A stretch of 63,171 nt of DNA, the filler included, from Rhabdomonas costata (taxonomy: Eukaryota), in the NCBI GenBank assembly GCA_019059605.1. It is 27 parts of 27 records of this genome, joined end to end, with 100 filler letters (N's around TTAATTAATTAA, not from the genome) between each part and the next. Parts side by side here need not be neighbours in the genome. Positions count along the whole stretch, not along the records: positions 4,691 to 6,934 come from JAHMHO010004575.1; 26 more parts are not named here. One strand, written 5' to 3'. The notes below the pieces were generated by a model, which was given only the letters and a program-made list of their open reading frames with translations, ran no database searches and was not told the DNA's origin. The position numbers were made by a program, and so were the translations under genes. The stretch's first letter is position 1. The number at the start of each line of letters is the position of its first letter. This document shows, one piece after another, positions 2,344 through 63,171 of this stretch.

Positions 2344-3440
2344 GTTGTGGGGGGCTGTCAGCGGCCCATTTTTCCGGAGCGTTGCCCATTGCAGCGTCAT
2401 GCATCTGCACAAACATGCTGCCGCTGCTGCGGAAATTTCATTTTACAAGGTTTCGCTCTTCTTCATTTTGTTTGCTTGAATTTGAAGTTGGAAGTGGTTG
2501 TGGCAAGCCGGACGCGAGGTTATTTGAAAGTTATTCCCTTTGTACTACTATGAGAATGGGAGCCCTGGAGAGGGTGCTGATCCCGGGGTGCGCCGATGTG
2601 TGGCTCCTGGAGGCGGGGGTTTTTGTGCCGCGGGTGCATACACCTCGGACCCGTGAGGTCTGCTCGCCCTTGGGCGTTTGGGATGGGGTCACATCTGTGG
2701 TCGAATTTCCTTGGTTTGTTATTTATCCTGTTGTGAAAATCCAGTTACTGAAAGAGTGCGAGAGTGCGAGAGTGAGTGAGTGAGTGAGTAAATGAATGTG
2801 CGCGTGTGTTCCCCCGTGTTTCTGGGAATGAGACAGACAGACAGACATGTCTCAGCCATCATGTTAAGTCTCGCGACTGCTGGAGACTCAGTCACCTTAT
2901 GTCCCCAATCTGCACTTGCTGACCTCAGTGTCCTGCATAGGAAGACCTGGTTGGAGTGAGGCCAGTTGCCTTCAGCCCCAACACCTAATCGAGACAGGGT
3001 GTTATACCGTGACACGGATTCGAGCCGATTTCGGCGAGCGACTGACAGTATGTTACGAGTTGTTACCCTTTGCACCAGCTGTGTGTGTGTGTGGCAAACA
3101 GATGCGTCAACTGAAGCTGATGTGTGCCTTTCTCTTCGTACGCCTTATATATTAGAACGAGCCACAGAAAAACAAACCTGCAGTGCCTTCACGCAGGTTG
3201 TTCACCTGACGAGTCTTCTGTTGTTCTCCTTGTTTAATGTAGTGTGGACTTGTGCAAATACTGAGGCTTTCGGAGAAGCCGGAATCCGGAAGACGGCTGT
3301 GAAGAGGACGGTGTCTGAGGTGCTTACAATAGTTTGGAGGCAATGGAGCTTATTGGTGTGGTTTGTAATCGTGGGGATTCCGCATGTGCTAAGACTGTAC
3401 CACACAATTATGAAGGAGGGCGAGAGCTGGGGATCCATTT

Positions 3441-4085
3441 GTGACGGTCGCGAATCGGGCAACCAATATGGTGGTTCTGATACCACGCCAGAATAAGATG
3501 AATGCCCACGACATTGCGGAGTTGTTCTGGTTGGAAGTGGTCAGACATCATGGGTTACCGATGAGTATAGTGAGTGACAGAGATCCTATCTTCATGTCGT
3601 TGTTCTGGAGAAACTTGATCGCTTTCTTAGACATCCATAGCAGAAGATCCTCGCCATACCATCCACAGACCAACGGAAAAGCAGAGCGAACCAACCAGAC
3701 CATGAAGCAGATGATGACCACGCTGATGTATTCGCATCCGGGCACAGGTTGGATGGACCTTTTGGTGTTGGTGAAGATTGAGATCAACAGTGCACCAATC
3801 GCAAACACGGAGTACAGTCCCTTCTACCTCAACTACGGGTATCATCCAGTGTTTTGGTGGGATCTGCCAGAGACAGCAGAGCCAGGTCCAGGAGCAGCGA
3901 GAGCTCCAGCGAGGTACCAGGTCAAGAGAATGAAGTCGATTTGGAAGAAGGTGCGGGAGGCATTTGAGAGATAAAAGCAGAAGGCCGCAGCCTATGCCAA
4001 TCGCAAGATGGCAGATTACAAGTTCAGTGTGTGTCAGGATGTGTTGATCAGTAAGAGGAGGCATTACCAAGGGAGGGATGTTTAG
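3441..4085 (+). mobile_element. Decayed Ty3/gypsy LTR-retrotransposon integrase fragment
   Basis: HGLPMSIVSDRDPIFMSLFW...SSPYHPQTNGKAERTNQTMKQ and SPFYLNYGYHP are gypsy rve motifs. Integrase-like sequence (KQKAAAYANRK...FSVCQDVLI) continues in frame past a premature TAA at 3972-3974. The N-terminal part is missing. Confidence 0.9.
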
Positions 4086-4725
4086 TGCCATTTGGCACTT
4101 TGAGGTCAGGCGAGGCAACAGACGTGAAGCGGGAATGTAAGCTAATTGACGTGCTCAATTAATGCATAAAAAGTACCAAATTGTTGCAGGGAAAAACAAA
4201 ATCGGTTGATTTTCGCAACCTCAACGACCTGCTTTTTTCACCTGACTGGCAGAAGAAAACCACAAACGCGGCGCAGCATTCTCTCCTGCGTCCCTCCTGT
4301 AAATCCATTCATTTCTATCCTTCTTGCTGTTTCCTGGGCAGTATGTTGATTTGCTGCGGCGTTTAGCTCCGCCGCGTATCTGAAGAAGTATTGTCGCGCA
4401 ATTGGATCGAAGACTCCGAATAAAAAACGGCAGGCTGAGCGAGTGTTCATCCGCACTAGAGACATTTACCACCAGATGGCACCGCTATTACCCCCCTGTG
4501 TGTGGTAGGTAGGCATTTAGGCTTCTCATTCTGGTGAGAAGCTGAGGAAATAGGTGCACAAATCCTTCATCTAGTGGTGTGTAATTCCTCNNNNNNNNNN
4601 NNNNNNNNNNNNNNNNNNNNNNNNNNNNNNNNNNTTAATTAATTAANNNNNNNNNNNNNNNNNNNNNNNNNNNNNNNNNNNNNNNNNNNNGGTGGGGGGG
4701 TTGGTCTTCCAACCGTTTCTACATT

Positions 4726-6341
4726 ATGGCTCACTCCTTCGACGCCGAGGCTTTTCAGGCGACCATCCGCTCCGCGGGGTACTGCGACGTCCCCGTTGAC
4801 ATCGAAGGGGAGATACACATGCTCCGCTTCACCCGGACCAGCACGCCCACGTGCCTCAGCTCAGCATAGTCGGCCCCACCACATGACGCTGACCAGGACC
4901 CCGCCCTGGACCGACTGCGGCAACGGCTACGGCGGACACTGAACTTGCAGACGGGTCCCTCGGTACAGATCACGAGGATTATCCTGGCCCTCTTCGGCTA
5001 CCGGGTGACACCCTTCAACACCACCGCGGAGGGCCTAAGACTGATCCTCTCGGTTCCAGAACTGAGCGTCTGCGACTGGAGCGCCCTCATGGGATACAGC
5101 CCAGAGGTTGATACATCTAAGAACCCCTCCGCACCCGTCGAACTCACTGCCTCACGCGTTGACCAACTCGAGTCCCGCCTTGGCACCCTGGCCGCTGCCT
5201 TTCAGGACCTTCAGCGCACCCTCGCATCGCAGGTCACTGCCGCCGTCTCGCAGGCGCTGATGGCCCACCCCCCAACCGCTGCCAGTGCTGCAGAACCTGC
5301 TCCGAGCGCCGCTCGCAGACCCACCGCCATGGAGGCAGACTCCACTCCCGCATGGAAGTTCAAATCCAACTCCCCAGCCTGGAGGTCCTGGGCACCATCT
5401 ACGCCCACCTCCTGTCCACTGGGCAGTCCTCCCTCGCCGCAGACCTGTACAGCGTCAGCGGCGTCATCGACTACGCCTTCCTCCCGGCCACTCATGCTGA
5501 AGCCTCCGACACAGAGCACGTCTACCAGGCGACCCACTCCGGGAAGCGCTGGAAGACCGACCACCCCCCTCCGATGCCATGCTACACCTGTGGCCAGATG
5601 CACGTGGTAAAGTACTGCCCCACCAAAGCGCAGAAGAAACAGCAGAGCGCATCCCAGTCCTTCCCCCGCGGCCACCACCCGCCCGCTACTACATCTCCAA
5701 AGCGGGACAGTGCTTCGACACCAGCCGCAGGCCCAACGTGGAGTGCAAGCGGTGCGGCCGCTTCCACTGGTGGTTTTCGTGCCCCAAGGGCCCGGACACT
5801 ATCCACGTCCCTCGCGGCGCGAGCTTCGTCGAGAATACCGACCAGAAGCCCGTAAACGCCAGCAGCGCCCGCTTTAAGCCCCCAGTGCCTGCCTCGAGAT
5901 CAGAAAGTGACACTCCCTCCCAAGAGTCTGCGTCGAGAGCCCCCGAGATACTCTCCCAGAATTGGCCCCGAAAGCACCGCTCCACAGGCGCCAGCGCGAG
6001 TGCATGCCCCACCATGCCCCACTCACCACCCGCACCCAGTGGCCTCCCAACCCTCTCACCGGGGCCCTCCTGGCCCTGGTACCCGGGCTGGCCACCCATG
6101 TACCCCAGTCCCTACATGGCCTACACCCATCGCTTTCCTGATCCTCAACGACAACAGCCTCCGAGGCCACCGCAGACACCCGCACCTCATGGACCAAGCT
6201 AGAGCGACGCACTGCCCGCTACCGCGCCCCTGGCCACCTCCACCACCACAATACGCACAAGCCCCAGCTCCCAATGCTGCCACTGCCCACCAGCCCTACT
6301 GGCCGGCTCCCGAGTCGGGGGCCCATCCCCCAGCCTACTGA
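4726..6341 (+). mobile_element. Gag-like ORF of a tyrosine-recombinase retroelement (frame-broken)
   Basis: Intronless C-rich coding sequence from ATG 4726, with in-frame TAG 4867-4869 and frame breaks near 5350, 5665 and 6190. Contains a coiled coil (RVDQLESRLGTLAAAFQDLQRTL), two CX2CX3HX4C knuckles (CYTCGQMHVVKYC, CKRCGRFHWWFSC) and a Pro-rich tail. Confidence 0.7.
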
Positions 6342-6934
6342 CTCTTGCAAGCGGCCCGCCGCCTGCGCCACCCCACCGAAGGATGGCTCCGCCTCGCCCT
6401 ACAAACCTTCCAGCCCTCCACACTCTGCACCTACGCAAGTGCCCTCTCTGTACTTTCCCGCCACTGTCCCTCCCACAGTCAGCCTTTCGCTCGTCATGTT
6501 GAGCACGCCCTTGCCAACTATGCGTCCACCGTCGGACCCAGCCGCATCTGGGCGACCGTATCCGCCCTCAGCCTGTCAAACAAGCTCCACCTACTCCCTC
6601 CCTGTGACCTGCCACTCTGTCAGGCCATTGCCCGCGGCTACGACACCAGCGCCACCCCAGCCCCGAGGCAAGAGTGGTACCACCCGCAGACCTCCCACTG
6701 CTCTCCATCGTTGACGACGACTTCACCGCAGCCGCCAACCTCTCATTCGACCTCATGCTCCGGGCGGGACAACTGGACCGCCTGCTGTGCGGCGACCTGG
6801 ATTTCACCACCCACTCGGTGTGGTGTCCGCCCCACAAGCAGATCCGCTTCCCCTACCTCCGCACGCCCACACCAGAAGTGTGGCAAATGCTCACCCGCCT
6901 CCACAGCGGCAGAGCCCCCGAAGAAAAGCTCTTC
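6274..6934 (+). mobile_element. Tyrosine recombinase ORF (N-terminal domain and box I), truncated by fragment end
   Basis: PSTLCTYASALS...TVSALS resembles the N-terminal binding domain. After a frame break near 6685 it reads ANLSFDLMLRAGQLDRLLCGDLDF...VWCPPHK (box I catalytic Arg and downstream Lys). Lies directly after the gag-like ORF. Confidence 0.75.
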
Positions 6935-7083
6935 NNNNNNNNNNNNNNNNNNNNNNNNNNNNNNNNNNNNNNNNNNNNTTAATTAATTAANNNNNNNNNN
7001 NNNNNNNNNNNNNNNNNNNNNNNNNNNNNNNNNNTGTGTGGGGGCACTGATATATGAGCTAACGCTGTCCCGCAGCCTGAAGT

Positions 7084-39022: not shown

Positions 39023-39631
39023 CGGCACAGACCACACTGGGAACCTCCCGTACTTTCCGGGAGTCTCTTTGTCTTGAGAGCAGAGAGGAGAAGCAAACAA
39101 GAACGATGCAAGCCTCAGCCTGGGGGAGGGGGGTGGAGCTCGCCCACAGAAAGTCCCAGAGAAAGACATTTGTGATACTGGAGGACCTAGGCAGCATGCA
39201 ACCTTGAACCTATTGATGCATGAAAGCGAAGACACTCCAAGAAACACTTGTCCTCAGTGATGCTTTTCCGGAAGCACTCGGGTTTCCTGGTTACTTGGGT
39301 CACTGGTCTGCAAACCCCAAAACTCAGCAACACCGGCATCGCCCTGGCCTTCGTCGCCGCGGCTCGGGGTTACCAGTGCATCCTGACCATCCCGGAGAGC
39401 ATGTCCATTGAGCGCCGGAAGGTCATGAAGGCCTTCGGGGCCAGCCTGGTGCTGACGGAGGCTGCGAAGGGGATGAAGGGGGCGATCGCGAAGGCCGAGG
39501 AGATTGTGGCGACGGACCCCGCTAAGCACTTCATGCCGATGCAGTTCAAGAACCCGGCGAACGTGACGGTGCACAAGCTGACGACGGGACCGGAGATCTG
39601 GGACTCGACGGGGGGCAACGTGGACGTGTTT
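37851..39631 (+). CDS. cysK: Cysteine synthase A / O-acetylserine (thiol)-lyase, partial. Exons 37851-38023, 38644-38729, 39328-~39631; possible first micro-exon 37540-37558
   Basis: [12 protein letters not shown]...[56 protein letters not shown]...[10 protein letters not shown]...[16 protein letters not shown]...QFKNPAN...TTGPEIW. PLP lysine (SVK) and TSGNT loop are intact. Confidence 0.95.
38598..39019. repeat. Intronic microsatellites: (GT)n about 38598-38632 and (GA)n about 38988-39019
   Basis: Visible dinucleotide runs in the cysK introns. Shorter (GT)n runs occur at about 21833 and 30979. Confidence 0.95.
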
Positions 39632-40216
39632 GTGAGGTTGGCTATTACCTTTTGAGTTTCGCGTGGCTCTGGGGGCTTTCGGGTGTATTGGGTTCCTGTT
39701 CGGTGCCACACTCCTTACCCTCACTGGTGTACTGCTGTGACCCGTTTCCCAAAAGNNNNNNNNNNNNNNNNNNNNNNNNNNNNNNNNNNNNNNNNNNNNT
39801 TAATTAATTAANNNNNNNNNNNNNNNNNNNNNNNNNNNNNNNNNNNNNNNNNNNNGGTTGTGGGGCAGATCCGCTCCATGCAGGCCGTCCACCCCGGCTG
39901 GGTCGAGCCACGTATTCTGAATGGAAGGTTGCCAACCGCGTTCAAAAAATGCACATTCGCGCACCCACTCAAATCAAACTTATCCAAAAAAAAAAAGCAA
40001 CTCGCTCGCATTTGGACGTATTTGTGGGCAAAACGAAAACCCAACTTGGTGCTGTGTGCCGTATGCACGCACGAATGCAGGCACTGGGGAGAAAGGGTTT
40101 TTACTGCTTGATTCTGCTTGATTTGGCTTTCGCACCCCATTTTCTCATAGAGAGCGTGAGAGAGGTCCGTGTGTACAACTGCGTTTCCTTGCTTTTTCCC
40201 ATGTGACCTCTCTCAG

Positions 40217-47110: not shown

Positions 47111-49029
47111 ATCATTTCCTACCTTGCCTACCTAGTATTTCAGCTGCGAACGCACTCCGAGTTTTTCGAGGATGGGTCTCAGAACGTATGCGTCACGATT
47201 CGGTGTTCACTGTTCTTCTTGCTATTCTTTCAACGTTTCAACGTTTTTTGTGCATGGGGACCGCACGGACGCTGCAGATACTGACAACGGTCACCACATT
47301 CTACACCAACGCGGAGATCCTCCTTTTTGCCCTATCACTCAGAATGAGGATGAGCGCCCAAGATTTCCTCTTTACTTCGCCCTGACCGTTCTGGGGGTGG
47401 AAATGTACCTGATCTCCTGGTTGAGTGACCGCCTGGTGGACAGCCTGCAGCCTATGGTTCAGGTGCACCCCTATTTGCGCCCACCTCAACGCTCAGCGCC
47501 GGCAGTATGTGGAATCCATGTTTTCTAAATATTGAGAACCGCGCGTTGACTCGAGTGCGAATTCTTGTATGCTTTTTGTTCTTTGCTTCAAAATTTTCCT
47601 TAGATCCATTGGTAATCCGGTTTTTTCTGCATCTGCTTTCACTTTTCACTCCTATCTTTGTAGCCGTCCGTAGGGACTGCGCATTTCTTTTGTGGACTTT
47701 GCCTGCACTGCCCTCTTAGTTTCTGCACAAGTCTACAAAGAGTTGCGTGGTTGAATTGCGGATCACAGGAGATCGGCCTGAGTGAGCTCTTCGTGGGGTT
47801 CATCTTAGTCCCGCTGATCGGGAACGTGGCCGAGATGGCCACAGCGGTGCTGATGGCGTGGCACGGCCGCGTGGGTATCTCCATTGGGGTCGCCGTGGGA
47901 AGCAGCATCCAGGTGGCGATGTTCGTTCTGCCCCTCATGGTGTGTGGCGCACCCGCTTCTCACGGTTCCCCTTGTCGTTGTGTCTGGACAATGTTCATAA
48001 GGCAAACCTTCGGAATCCCGGCCCAAGGAACTCAATGAGAAACCGGAAGGAATCACTGAAAGCAACCACTTTTAATACACACTAGGAGTGAAAAAAGCAC
48101 AAAAACTCTCCAGATCAAATAAAGAAAACATGGCTAATTTGCACAGAAGAGAAGTCTCCCTAACCCTAGGAAAGTTGCTGGGGGTGCATGGCCCCTTAAC
48201 CCCCTGCGAGAAATCTACTATCCTTCGGGCCGGGATTCCGAAGGGCTGCCGTTCATAATTACCTGCGTGCTTGGCTCACTTCTCGCCAATTTATTGCATG
48301 AGTCTTACTGCAAACCTTCTTTTGAGTTTTTGTTGCCACTTGGACGACTTTTCCTTCACTGGTGACTTCTCTAAAATATCAGATGTTCTTTATATTCTTT
48401 GCTTTGAGTGCTTTGGCAGGTGATTCCAGGCTTGGCACCATCCGCCTTTTTGACGAGTTGGCACTTGAAAAGTCACGCCCTGGGCATGACTGACCAGTCA
48501 TGTGCACGCCTTGCCACAGTGAGCGAAGAAATGACGTGAAGGAGCCCCTTTCTACTCGGCTGCGGAACCTAGACAACCTCACCCTCGTTTCTTCCTCATT
48601 TGTTTTTGTTTGGTTCTTTCCTTGCTGGGGGTGCGGCAGGTGCTTGTGTCATGGGCCATGGGGCGGGACCTCGACCTGAACTTCAAGGTGTACACCACCG
48701 TCGCGCTGTTCGCCAGCGCTGTGCTGATCACGGTGATGGTTCGGGATGGCCGCAGCAGCTGGCTGGAGGGCCTGCTGCTGCTTCTGGCATACATCATGGT
48801 GGGCAGCAGCTACCTCTTCCTGGCACCTGGCGTCATGGAGGTATGTGTGTGCTGTGTTTGTGCGGCATCGATGCGCCAGTGTGCCTGTGTGATATGGGAA
48901 AAAGACGTCTGGAGCCCAAGCGTACGCTTGCCTGTGTTATTTGACAGGTTCTACCTCTTCACACCCTCCTAAATAATGCCGTTGCTAACCCATATTGCAC
49001 ACAGCTGGCACGGATTCGCATCAACGTAG
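47111..49029 (+). CDS. CAX: Ca2+/H+ exchanger (CAX family), 3' half. Exons 47111-47185, 47343-47462, 47769-47939, 48640-48840, probable last exon 48948-49029
   Basis: YLAYLVFQLRTH, GLSELFVGFILVPLIGNVAEM, SIGVAVGSSIQVAMFVLP, DLDLNF, DGRSSWLEGLLLLLAY. Four phase-0 GT-AG introns. Confidence 0.93.
48001..48250. mobile_element. 250-bp MITE with ~29-bp terminal inverted repeats and 8-bp target-site duplication, in a CAX intron
   Basis: Left end GGCAAACCTTCGGAATCCCGGCCC-AAGGA. Reverse complement of right end GGCAGCCCTTCGGAATCCCGGCCCGAAGGA. GTTCATAA abuts both ends (47993-48000, 48251-48258). Confidence 0.9.
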
Positions 49030-49461
49030 CCCGAATGGAGCGCGGGTATCTCTGCTGGACGAAAGGAAACGAAAAATGGATGGCGGTGGGCGTGGACATC
49101 CTGCTCCTTGTCCACCCCCCCACNNNNNNNNNNNNNNNNNNNNNNNNNNNNNNNNNNNNNNNNNNNNTTAATTAATTAANNNNNNNNNNNNNNNNNNNNN
49201 NNNNNNNNNNNNNNNNNNNNNNNGACCTTTCACAGAAATTCAACTGACCTTCCTTTTCGTTGTTTTGGTTGTCGGCTCATAATGCTGTTATATCCCAGCA
49301 GAAAATTATGGGATTGTCTACGTTGATGCAGTTTGCTGCTGTTTTCATATTGGCTCTGTGCGCACGAAGTGGCGCACGAGATTTAGGAACTATGTCTGGT
49401 TTTTGATTCACGCGTGTTGATTGTGGATTACCTTATTTGTCCGTTGGGATGGGTGGGCCAG

Positions 49462-50245
49462 GAGATATGCTTTGGGTGTCACTCCGCAACCCGCGACCGG
49501 AGCCACGGCCCCGCGGTGAACCCCCGCAAGCTGCACGTCGGCAACCTCCCCAGCGACTTCCGCACGGACGGGCTGAAGCAGCACTTCAAGCGCTTCGGGG
49601 ACATTGTCGACGTGATGGTGATGCCCGGGAAGGACAATACGGCGTACGGTTTTGTGGAGGTGCGCCTGTGCATCCCCTCATCAACGATTAAAAATGATTT
49701 TTTCTGTTATATCATTCGAAACGAAATGACAATTTTTCAAGTTCCCATTGTTGTTTTGATGCGGAATTGTAAATGATTTGGGCTGTACTCTCGGCCAGTC
49801 GGGAGATTTCTGAACCGTGTTGCAGTGCATCACGGCATATGATGCCCTCTCTTGCCATCGCCCTGGAGTTCGACAGGCGTAGTCACAGGGTAAGCAGTAT
49901 ATCGTCAGTCCTCATCGTTGTTCGGGCGCAATCTTCCTCCCCCATCTGCATCCTCCTCCTCCACCAAAAAATTTACTTTGTGCTCCTTAGCGCCTTAACA
50001 TCTCATTTTGCGGTGAATCCGGTCGGCTCCCTTCCAAGCAATCAGCATCCCGGGAAATTTGAGGCTCTACAAGTTGGCAATGGGCGCATTCTTTTTCATG
50101 ATCGTAATCCCGCCCCAAAGTTTGCCCACGAGTCGGACGCGATGAAGGCTCTGGATGCCGAGCATGAGGTGGAGGGCCGCCGCTTGGACGTCGAGCGGTC
50201 TAAGCCCGACGTGAAGAAGATGATGAGCAGCCGGGACAGGCGAAG
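49462..50245 (+). CDS. RRM protein preceded by a probable RanBP2-type zinc-finger half. Exons 49462-49659, 50121-~50245
   Basis: EICFGCH...RKLHVGNLPSDFRTDGLKQHFKRFGDIVDVMVMPGKDNTAYGFVE|FAHESDAMKALDAEHEVEGRRLDVERSKP. RNP2 and RNP1 are intact across the intron. Confidence 0.88.
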
Positions 50246-63153: not shown

Positions 63154-63171
63154 GGGTTAGGGTTAGGGTTA
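63154..63171 (+). repeat. Telomere-type (TTAGGG)n repeat at fragment end
   Basis: GGGTTAGGGTTAGGGTTA runs to the last base with the G-rich strand pointing outward. Only three units are visible. Confidence 0.6.

Follow-up and report, generated by a model that had tools for sequence, protein, structure and literature searches.

What kind of mobile element is left in a contig of 2244 bases (JAHMHO010004575.1) from Rhabdomonas costata, in which a gag-like reading frame with two zinc knuckles is followed by a putative tyrosine recombinase (YR)? The contig lies at positions 4691-6934 of the window, by which the whole stretch of 63,171 bases that was analysed is meant. A preliminary description, made from the sequence alone, had proposed a divergent, possibly new family of YR retrotransposons with the gene order of the kinetoplastid elements VIPER and TATE, and all peptides quoted in it were located on the plus strand. 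According to the analysis reported here, the contig is very probably the 5' part of a YR retrotransposon copy that has decayed, from an element with the order gag, YR and then reverse transcriptase (RT) with ribonuclease H (RNase H; RT/RH for the pair). It covers open reading frame (ORF) 1 and the first two thirds of ORF2, and the element belongs to an unnamed family, of which relatives are known only from environmental sequence.

The recombinase and the gene order of its relatives

The putative recombinase was linked to other proteins by two kinds of search. A word-based search with 6342-6662 found one relative among 649 candidates, the protein P0001 of 254 amino acids (81% identity over 43 residues), which crosses frameshift 4 of the window copy in a single frame and extends beyond the contig end. 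In addition to P0001, a HMMER search with 6608-6934 against 1.84 billion representatives yielded nine YR proteins with E≤1e-3, eight of them with E≤1e-10. All YR relatives come from ENA, JGI or Logan assemblies, and the only label present was 'hypothetical protein'. P0004 is a complete ORF of 310 amino acids.

When aligned, the family shares the motifs LMLR(A/S/G)GQ, PPHK, WH(A/T/S)LRRGG, G(C/S)W and (T/A)HY(I/V), which we take to be the catalytic set R, K, H-x-x-R, W and Y, an assignment made by family knowledge and not by a residue-level structural alignment. Full-length relatives, which are 47-79% identical to the window pieces, hold this set completely. In the window copy, FDLMLRAGQ is found at 6746-6772 and PPHK at 6827-6838, with the predicted catalytic Arg codon at 6761-6763 (LMLRAGQ) and the Lys codon at 6836-6838; the contig stops ahead of HxxR, W and Y, and the earlier remark that the fragment ends is literally correct, as contig 4691-6934 breaks off at 6934. 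The YR had been described as following immediately after gag. A YR reading frame does follow the knuckles, but it is split over frames 0 and 2.

P0004 was modelled with AlphaFold on an alignment of 13 rows, and the model reached a mean pLDDT (predicted local distance difference test) of 67.6, with 79-93 in the catalytic core. It matched 49 PDB entries with E≤0.001, and among the matches listed the best were tyrosine recombinases, namely Cre (E 3e-8), XerA, Tn1549 integrase, integron integrase, lambda integrase and SroF; for Cre, XerA and the Tn1549 and lambda integrases, E ranged from 3e-8 to 4e-4. The Atlas clusters nearest to the YR carry Phage_integrase. From its motifs and its predicted fold, the YR identity of the family can be regarded as established, and for the window copy it would follow from the 47-79% identity to the family proteins. 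A profile match had been suggested as the check on this assignment; what was obtained is a sub-threshold match of relatives to Phage_integrase, the catalytic set in full-length relatives and a Cre-like model of P0004, which together bear out the YR nature.

The remaining part of the order was derived from relatives. A scan of JGI metagenome contigs gave five loci (L001-L005) out of 32 pattern matches. Gag is followed by YR in L001 and L002, and YR by RT in L003, L004 and L005, of which L004 (47.1 bits) and L005 (43.8 bits) exceed the RVT_1 cut-off of 29.6; in L004, an RNase H-like region comes after the RT. The frame of P0013 spans from the gag region through the RNase H end on one contig of 3850 bases. 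Searches with the RT returned seven and then 24 family proteins, all of them unnamed, among them the complete ORF3 products P0015 and P0016 with 538 amino acids, and RVT_1 was above its cut-off in 11 of 13 family proteins. The PDB sequence nearest to the RT family profile is Ty3 RT (4ol8, E 5.7e-12), followed by gammaretroviral RTs. A model of P0015 (pLDDT 85.8) aligned over ~500-560 columns to the RT-RNase H of caulimovirids, retroviruses and hepadnaviruses; caulimovirids came first in the fold search (E 6e-23), and hepatitis B protein P had rank 17 (E 9e-19, TMq 0.54). RNase H models of Pfam stayed below threshold, with DNA_pol_viral_C in two of 13 proteins (E 5.5e-4 and 3.6e-3) and RNase_H in one of 13. 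The 538-residue ORF3 showed neither a methyltransferase nor any further Pfam domain.

In intact relatives, the gag-like ORF1, which contains a coiled-coil-like stretch, two knuckle modules and a Pro-rich tail, is thus followed by a TGA, the YR and the RT/RNase H. The YR ORF2 has ~310-340 amino acids and lies in the gag frame, and the ORF3 of 538 amino acids lies in the +1 frame and overlaps the YR tail. ORF2 and ORF3 overlap because in L003 the YR frame, with its stop after 762, ends past the conserved ORF3 ATG at 665, and another ATG of the +1 frame lies upstream at 521; the overlap in L003 measures at least 101 nt. Since the relatives provide gag, YR and RT/RH in this sequence, the order is that of VIPER and TATE, as had been proposed. 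An RT downstream of the YR had been set beforehand as the test of a retrotransposon, and it was found in L003, L004, L005 and P0013 and nowhere on the window contig.

Two further observations were made on the +1 frame. The ORF3 frame is conserved at the protein level for ~45 residues upstream of the conserved Met (RLLQPPPVSxLQSRIRSAA; L003 521-765, P0013, P0014, P0018, P0019 and P0020), and this stretch starts at the end of the YR conservation (CWRA), overlapping the basic YR tail. ORF3 may be entered either by a variable upstream ATG or by a +1 frameshift out of the YR. The +1 frame is also open over nearly all of gag and YR, for 572 codons in L002 (335-2050, frame 2) and for 1157 amino acids in P0013; the probable cause of this long open frame is the composition, which is rich in G+C and Pro.

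The gag-like ORF1 and the state of the copies

The gag-like part carries two copies of an extended module. Module 1 (VYQATH...KYCP) was located at 5520-5621 with knuckle 1, CYTCGQMHVVKYC, at 5580-5618, and module 2 (YYISKAG...FSCP) at 5687-5785 with knuckle 2, CKRCGRFHWWFSC, at 5744-5782. Both knuckles of the window have the CX2CX3HX4C spacing that had been reported for them. In all six frames of the entire window, the pattern C-x2-C-x3/4-H-x4-C matched only these two knuckles, and at least two matches occurred in 0 of 2000 shuffles of contig 4691-6934, in which mononucleotide content only was kept. Both CCHC modules are genuine and exceed what chance would give.

The gag of L002, a metagenome locus of 2052 bases, is a stop-free frame of 426 amino acids with both modules, YRAKHSGKRWDTSYPPPQPCYDCHQLHWRADCP and YYVSKTGKTYDTRRKPQSDCNKCPGKQHWFWSCP. 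That L002 holds both in one open frame shows the modules to be conserved and the frameshifts to be peculiar to the window copy. The gag-like ORF of the preliminary description therefore stands as far as its gag-like character and its two modules are concerned, but it is not a single ORF, as frame 0 carries module 1 and frame 2 carries module 2. By tblastn, 5155-5367 is 35% identical to residues 1-82 of the L002 gag (E 7e-6), and this segment contains a coiled-coil-like stretch with a weak Pfam match to DUF7310 (E 0.06-0.12). The extended module reads Y, G-K/Q, aromatic-D/K-T, P, then the knuckle and CP, and is duplicated in both the window and L002; because they share it at ~30-35% gag identity, the duplicated module is conserved across lineages. 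In the alignment of gag pieces, window module 2 was placed onto L002 module 1.

The short spacing, in contrast, had to be given up as a trait of the family. The second knuckle of L002 is CX2CX4HX4C, and CX2CX3HX4C is therefore not fixed in the family. The spacing has also already been published, in the gag of the LINE helena and in the second finger of HERV-W/HERV-H (PMC2330053, PMC5016936). The helena gag resembles the present one in a coiled coil in its 5' part as well, but helena and HERV-W/H are unrelated element classes, and the likeness consists of motif spacing and general layout only.

Compared with its single-frame relatives, the window copy has four frameshifts and one in-frame TAG (Table 1), and with these and a contig end inside the YR it is predicted to be unable to work. 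Where they overlap, L001, L002 and L003 are 99.2-99.8% identical to one another, and their frames are open, which shows that young, intact copies exist; L005 is ~89% identical to them. The window copy shares ~70% DNA identity with L001-L003, over 214 bases only. Decayed copies are common in the family. A TAA at 532-534 of L004 replaces the Gln codon of the YR motif AHxGQ, and the same truncation is found in P0003 and P0011, proteins from two sources. L004 is without the YR tail and has a low G+C of 0.469, and L005 has an internal deletion.

Table 1. Features of contig 4691-6934 and of host-like pieces elsewhere in the window (frame: start coordinate mod 3)
Feature	Position	Strand	Basis
G/T-only stretch, 15 bases	4691-4705	+	Contig start; probably primer-derived and outside the element
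Possible ORF1 start, ATG 4726, frame 1, with in-frame TAG 4867-4869	4726-4869	+	No relative spans the stretch; candidate gag only
Gag-like ORF1, frame 1	4870-5367	+	5155-5367 aligns to L002 gag residues 1-82
Frameshift 1, frame 1 to 0, at C run	5368-5375	+	Segments switch frame against the single-frame L002 gag
Gag-like ORF1, frame 0, with module 1	5376-5664	+	Module also kept in L002
Frameshift 2, frame 0 to 2, approximate, in SFPRG/RPPPARYY	5665-5666	+	L002 single-frame: TFPRGRPPGRYY
Gag-like ORF1, frame 2, with module 2 and Ser/Pro-rich tail	5666-6199	+	tblastn against L002
Frameshift 3, frame 2 to 0, within Pro-rich low-complexity stretch	6150-6215	+	Frame 2 stop at 6200-6202; place only bracketed
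Pro-rich gag C-terminal end, frame 0	6201-6338	+	Aligns to L002 gag end
CTAC-TGA-CTC, lone gag/YR stop (TGA 6339-6341), candidate readthrough site	6335-6344	+	Identical in L001 and L002
YR ORF2, N-terminal core-binding-like domain, frame 0	6342-6686	+	47% to P0004 1-108; 79% to P0001 1-52
Frameshift 4, frame 0 to 2, in WYHP/ADLPLL	6683-6686	+	P0001 and other relatives single-frame WFHPADLPLL
YR ORF2, start of catalytic domain, frame 2	6683-6934	+	76% identity to P0001 residues 42-135
Host-like Pfam pieces (PALP, Na_Ca_ex, RRM_1)	39224-39652, 47664-48035, 49387-49773	+	Pfam

Known elements, competing explanations and the rest of the window

VIPER and TATE, which make up the VIPER-like superfamily in the order DIRS, consist of a gag-like ORF, overlapping YR and RT/RH ORFs and split direct repeats (PMC12278014, PMC6681497), and the relatives of the present family show the same succession of gag-like, YR and RT/RH parts with an overlap of YR and RT/RH. 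A CCHC box occurs in some VIPER gags (PMC6681497), as CCHC knuckles do in the gag of the present family. In Bodo saltans, the three TATE genes form one ORF (PMC6681497), which resembles the in-frame arrangement of gag, TGA and YR found here. The RNase H of VIPER-like elements has been allied to that of hepadnaviruses (PMC6681497), and the sub-threshold DNA_pol_viral_C matches in two of 13 family proteins give at most a weak hint in the same direction, caulimovirids being first by fold. On the other hand, the ORF3 of the present family has 538 amino acids in contrast to ~700-1090 for the VIPER/TATE RT/RH alignments (PMC6681497), and its gag differs by two extended knuckle modules, with CX2CX3HX4C in the window. 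The likeness to VIPER and TATE is one of gene layout as described in print, and no named protein was found among 24 RT relatives or 10 YR relatives. Of the features of the order DIRS, a YR and an RT/RNase H of the long terminal repeat (LTR) type are present, the latter in relatives only; of those of the VIPER-like superfamily, the gene order and the overlap of YR and RT/RH were likewise found in relatives.

A number of results weigh against a YR retrotransposon of this order in the window. Eight window pieces gave nothing relevant in Pfam at E≤1 except the weak coiled-coil model. Phage_integrase stayed below its cut-off of 27.1 bits in P0001 (E 7e-4, 19.8 bits) and in P0004 (E 0.032, 14.4 bits), and a search of PDB sequences with the YR family profile detected no recombinase, the sole matches being chance ones to eIF3k and formin (E 0.4-0.9). 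The RT/RNase H of the family is found neither on contig 4691-6934 nor on the other 26 contigs of the window, and the layout is therefore taken over from relatives with a protein identity of only ~47-79%. Of the terminal repeats of the order DIRS, which are either inverted with an internal complementary region or split direct repeats, neither kind was found in contig 4691-6934, L002 or L004, DNA pieces of 1.0-2.3 kb without element ends. Finally, the G+C of the contig is 0.645, the highest of all 27 (others 0.416-0.564), and because of this the contig could derive from a different organism than the remaining 26.

The element might instead belong to the DIRS1-like, PAT-like or Ngaro-like groups. 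They have in common with the present family that ORF1 is gag-like, that the RT/RNase H is of the LTR type, that a YR replaces the integrase and that ORFs overlap, and like every YR retroelement the present family has an RT of the Ty3/retrovirus type; DIRS elements have also been reported from Euglena gracilis (bioRxiv 10.64898/2026.05.21.726589). The differences lie in the gene order and in ORF3. These three groups have the YR after RT/RH, whereas in the present family it precedes RT/RNase H in three of three junction-spanning loci (L003, L004 and L005). No methyltransferase-like domain was detected in the family, and the 538-residue ORF3 is without this or any other extra Pfam domain. Membership in one of these groups, and not in the VIPER-like one, is thus considered unlikely.

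Quite unlikely, too, is an artefact, in which the contig would be a chimera of amplification or assembly and its frameshifts sequencing errors in an intact element. Such an origin could be suspected from the primer-like G/T and C/A ends on most contigs and from the position of frameshift 1 in a C run. However, the whole contig is collinear with L002 and P0001, which speaks against a chimera, and a nonsense codon together with four indels within 2.2 kb would exceed the usual error of short-read assemblies. Other members of the family are decayed as well, as the TAA in the YR of L004 and the deletion in L005 demonstrate.

That an unrelated zinc-knuckle gene merely has beside it a YR DNA transposon of the Crypton kind, or a YR gene of domesticated or viral origin, is very improbable: Cryptons also have a eukaryotic YR with an N-terminal helical and a catalytic domain, the contig bears gag and YR only with the family RT nowhere in the window, and VIPER-like YRs cluster near Cryptons (PMC6681497), but L001 and L002, which are independent metagenome contigs, show the same adjacency of gag and YR, the YR of L003, L004, L005 and P0013 is followed by an RT/RNase H that overlaps its frame, and Cryptons are without the gag and the RT/RNase H that the present family has beside its YR.

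The window itself is made of 27 contigs of 2239-2247 bases each, joined by N44-TTAATTAATTAA-N44 linkers (e.g. 4591-4690 and 6935-7034). The element fragment is one entire contig, and the neighbouring contigs have no physical linkage to it. At least eight G/T-only bases open 17 of the 27 contigs and at least eight C/A-only bases close 16 of them; these ends are probably remnants of degenerate primers from whole-genome amplification. When the 36 family proteins were compared with the 27 contigs, no match beyond contig 4691-6934 was obtained, and Rfam gave no match in the window. Among the 146 window ORFs of at least 110 amino acids outside the element, only the three Pfam domains listed in Table 1 were recognisable. 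On a separate contig (2344-4590), a plus-strand ORF at 3414-3971 resembles an integrase core (rve_3 E 5.9e-5, rve E 4.2e-4, both below cut-off) and is probably a piece of an LTR retrotransposon unrelated to the YR element. Telomere-type TTAGGG repeats were observed at 63157-63168, at the end of the last contig, and are not linked to the YR element. An association with telomeres, which had been put forward as worth a search, was not seen: contig 4691-6934 and the five loci L001-L005 contain no telomere repeats, and 63157-63168 is the sole exact match in the window.

The gag-YR junction, the distribution of the family and its meaning

Across the TGA, gag and YR keep one frame in the window as well as in L001 and L002. 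In a 183-column alignment of the window with these two loci that is otherwise about half identical, CTAC-TGA-CTC is the longest identical block. The frame of 2052 nt in L002 contains one stop, the TGA, and there is no Met ahead of the YR catalytic domain in the window or in L002. In the 16 codons after the TGA, eight residues are identical, and two Ala codons vary only at synonymous sites. The shared frame, the identical stop context and the lack of a following Met favour readthrough of the UGA, and production of the YR as a Gag-YR fusion in this way would be the likeliest route in these two lineages, although the sequences leave the matter evenly balanced. Against it, no significant RNA structure was found 3' of the TGA (z-scores -0.02 to -1.89), an ATG eight codons past the stop position makes a start there possible in P0003, P0004 and P0008, and the case is built on two independent DNA contexts only. 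An alternative genetic code was considered as well and is ruled out by the single TGA in the 2052-nt frame of L002 and by its absence from the 538-residue ORF3s.

By analogy to the life cycle of the order DIRS (PMC6681497), the element RNA would be bound by the knuckle protein and copied into DNA by the RT/RNase H, and a closed DNA form would then be inserted by the YR through site-specific recombination, without target duplication. The YR might be supplied to this cycle as the Gag-YR fusion that readthrough of the UGA would generate.

A more far-reaching idea, which we regard as tentative and on balance doubtful, is that the family represents a deep branch of the VIPER-like superfamily in free-living protists, perhaps with retrovirus-like expression by recoding. 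Here, programmed readthrough of the conserved UAC-UGA-CUC would give the Gag-YR fusion, and RT/RNase H would be added by a further shift to the +1 frame where the YR core ends. The second step gains support from the conservation of the ORF3 frame for ~45 codons upstream of its ATG, beginning where the YR conservation stops. Recoding of this kind in YR retrotransposons was not found described in the accessible literature on these elements.

With respect to the host, there is a weak lead to Euglenozoa, namely the label 'Eukaryota, commonest Euglenozoa' of the closest Atlas clusters to the RT/RH, which rests on three members. VIPER-like elements have been treated as confined to kinetoplastids, with their origin unresolved; matches outside Kinetoplastida were few, and contamination was suspected for those in bacterial assemblies (PMC6681497). 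Viral contigs and prokaryote genome contigs were scanned with the YR and RT alignments and contained no relatives, so the contaminated metagenome-assembled genomes suspected in that study as a source yielded none for the present family. In a diplonemid genome, more than 60 ORFs resembled proteins of TATE and other elements (PMC10161547). A description of the present family was not found in the accessible parts of the literature on YR retrotransposons in Euglena and on VIPER-like and DIRS elements. What remains of the proposed divergent, possibly new family is hence an unnamed family with gag, YR and RT/RH, but without the knuckle spacing as its hallmark.

For the window itself the result is an ordinary one, a dead transposon fragment; the element adds a lineage to the history of YR retroelements and no new principle. 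Seemingly intact copies of the family occur in environmental samples and a decayed one in an assembly of the single-cell type, and these together point to a second, compact lineage with the YR-before-RT order. It could serve for rooted trees of RT, RNase H and YR that ask whether this order arose once, and the in-frame junction of gag, TGA and YR offers a small, testable case of possible recoding in YR retrotransposons. If the family were indeed a deep protist branch of the VIPER-like superfamily, the gene order would be pushed back beyond the kinetoplastids.

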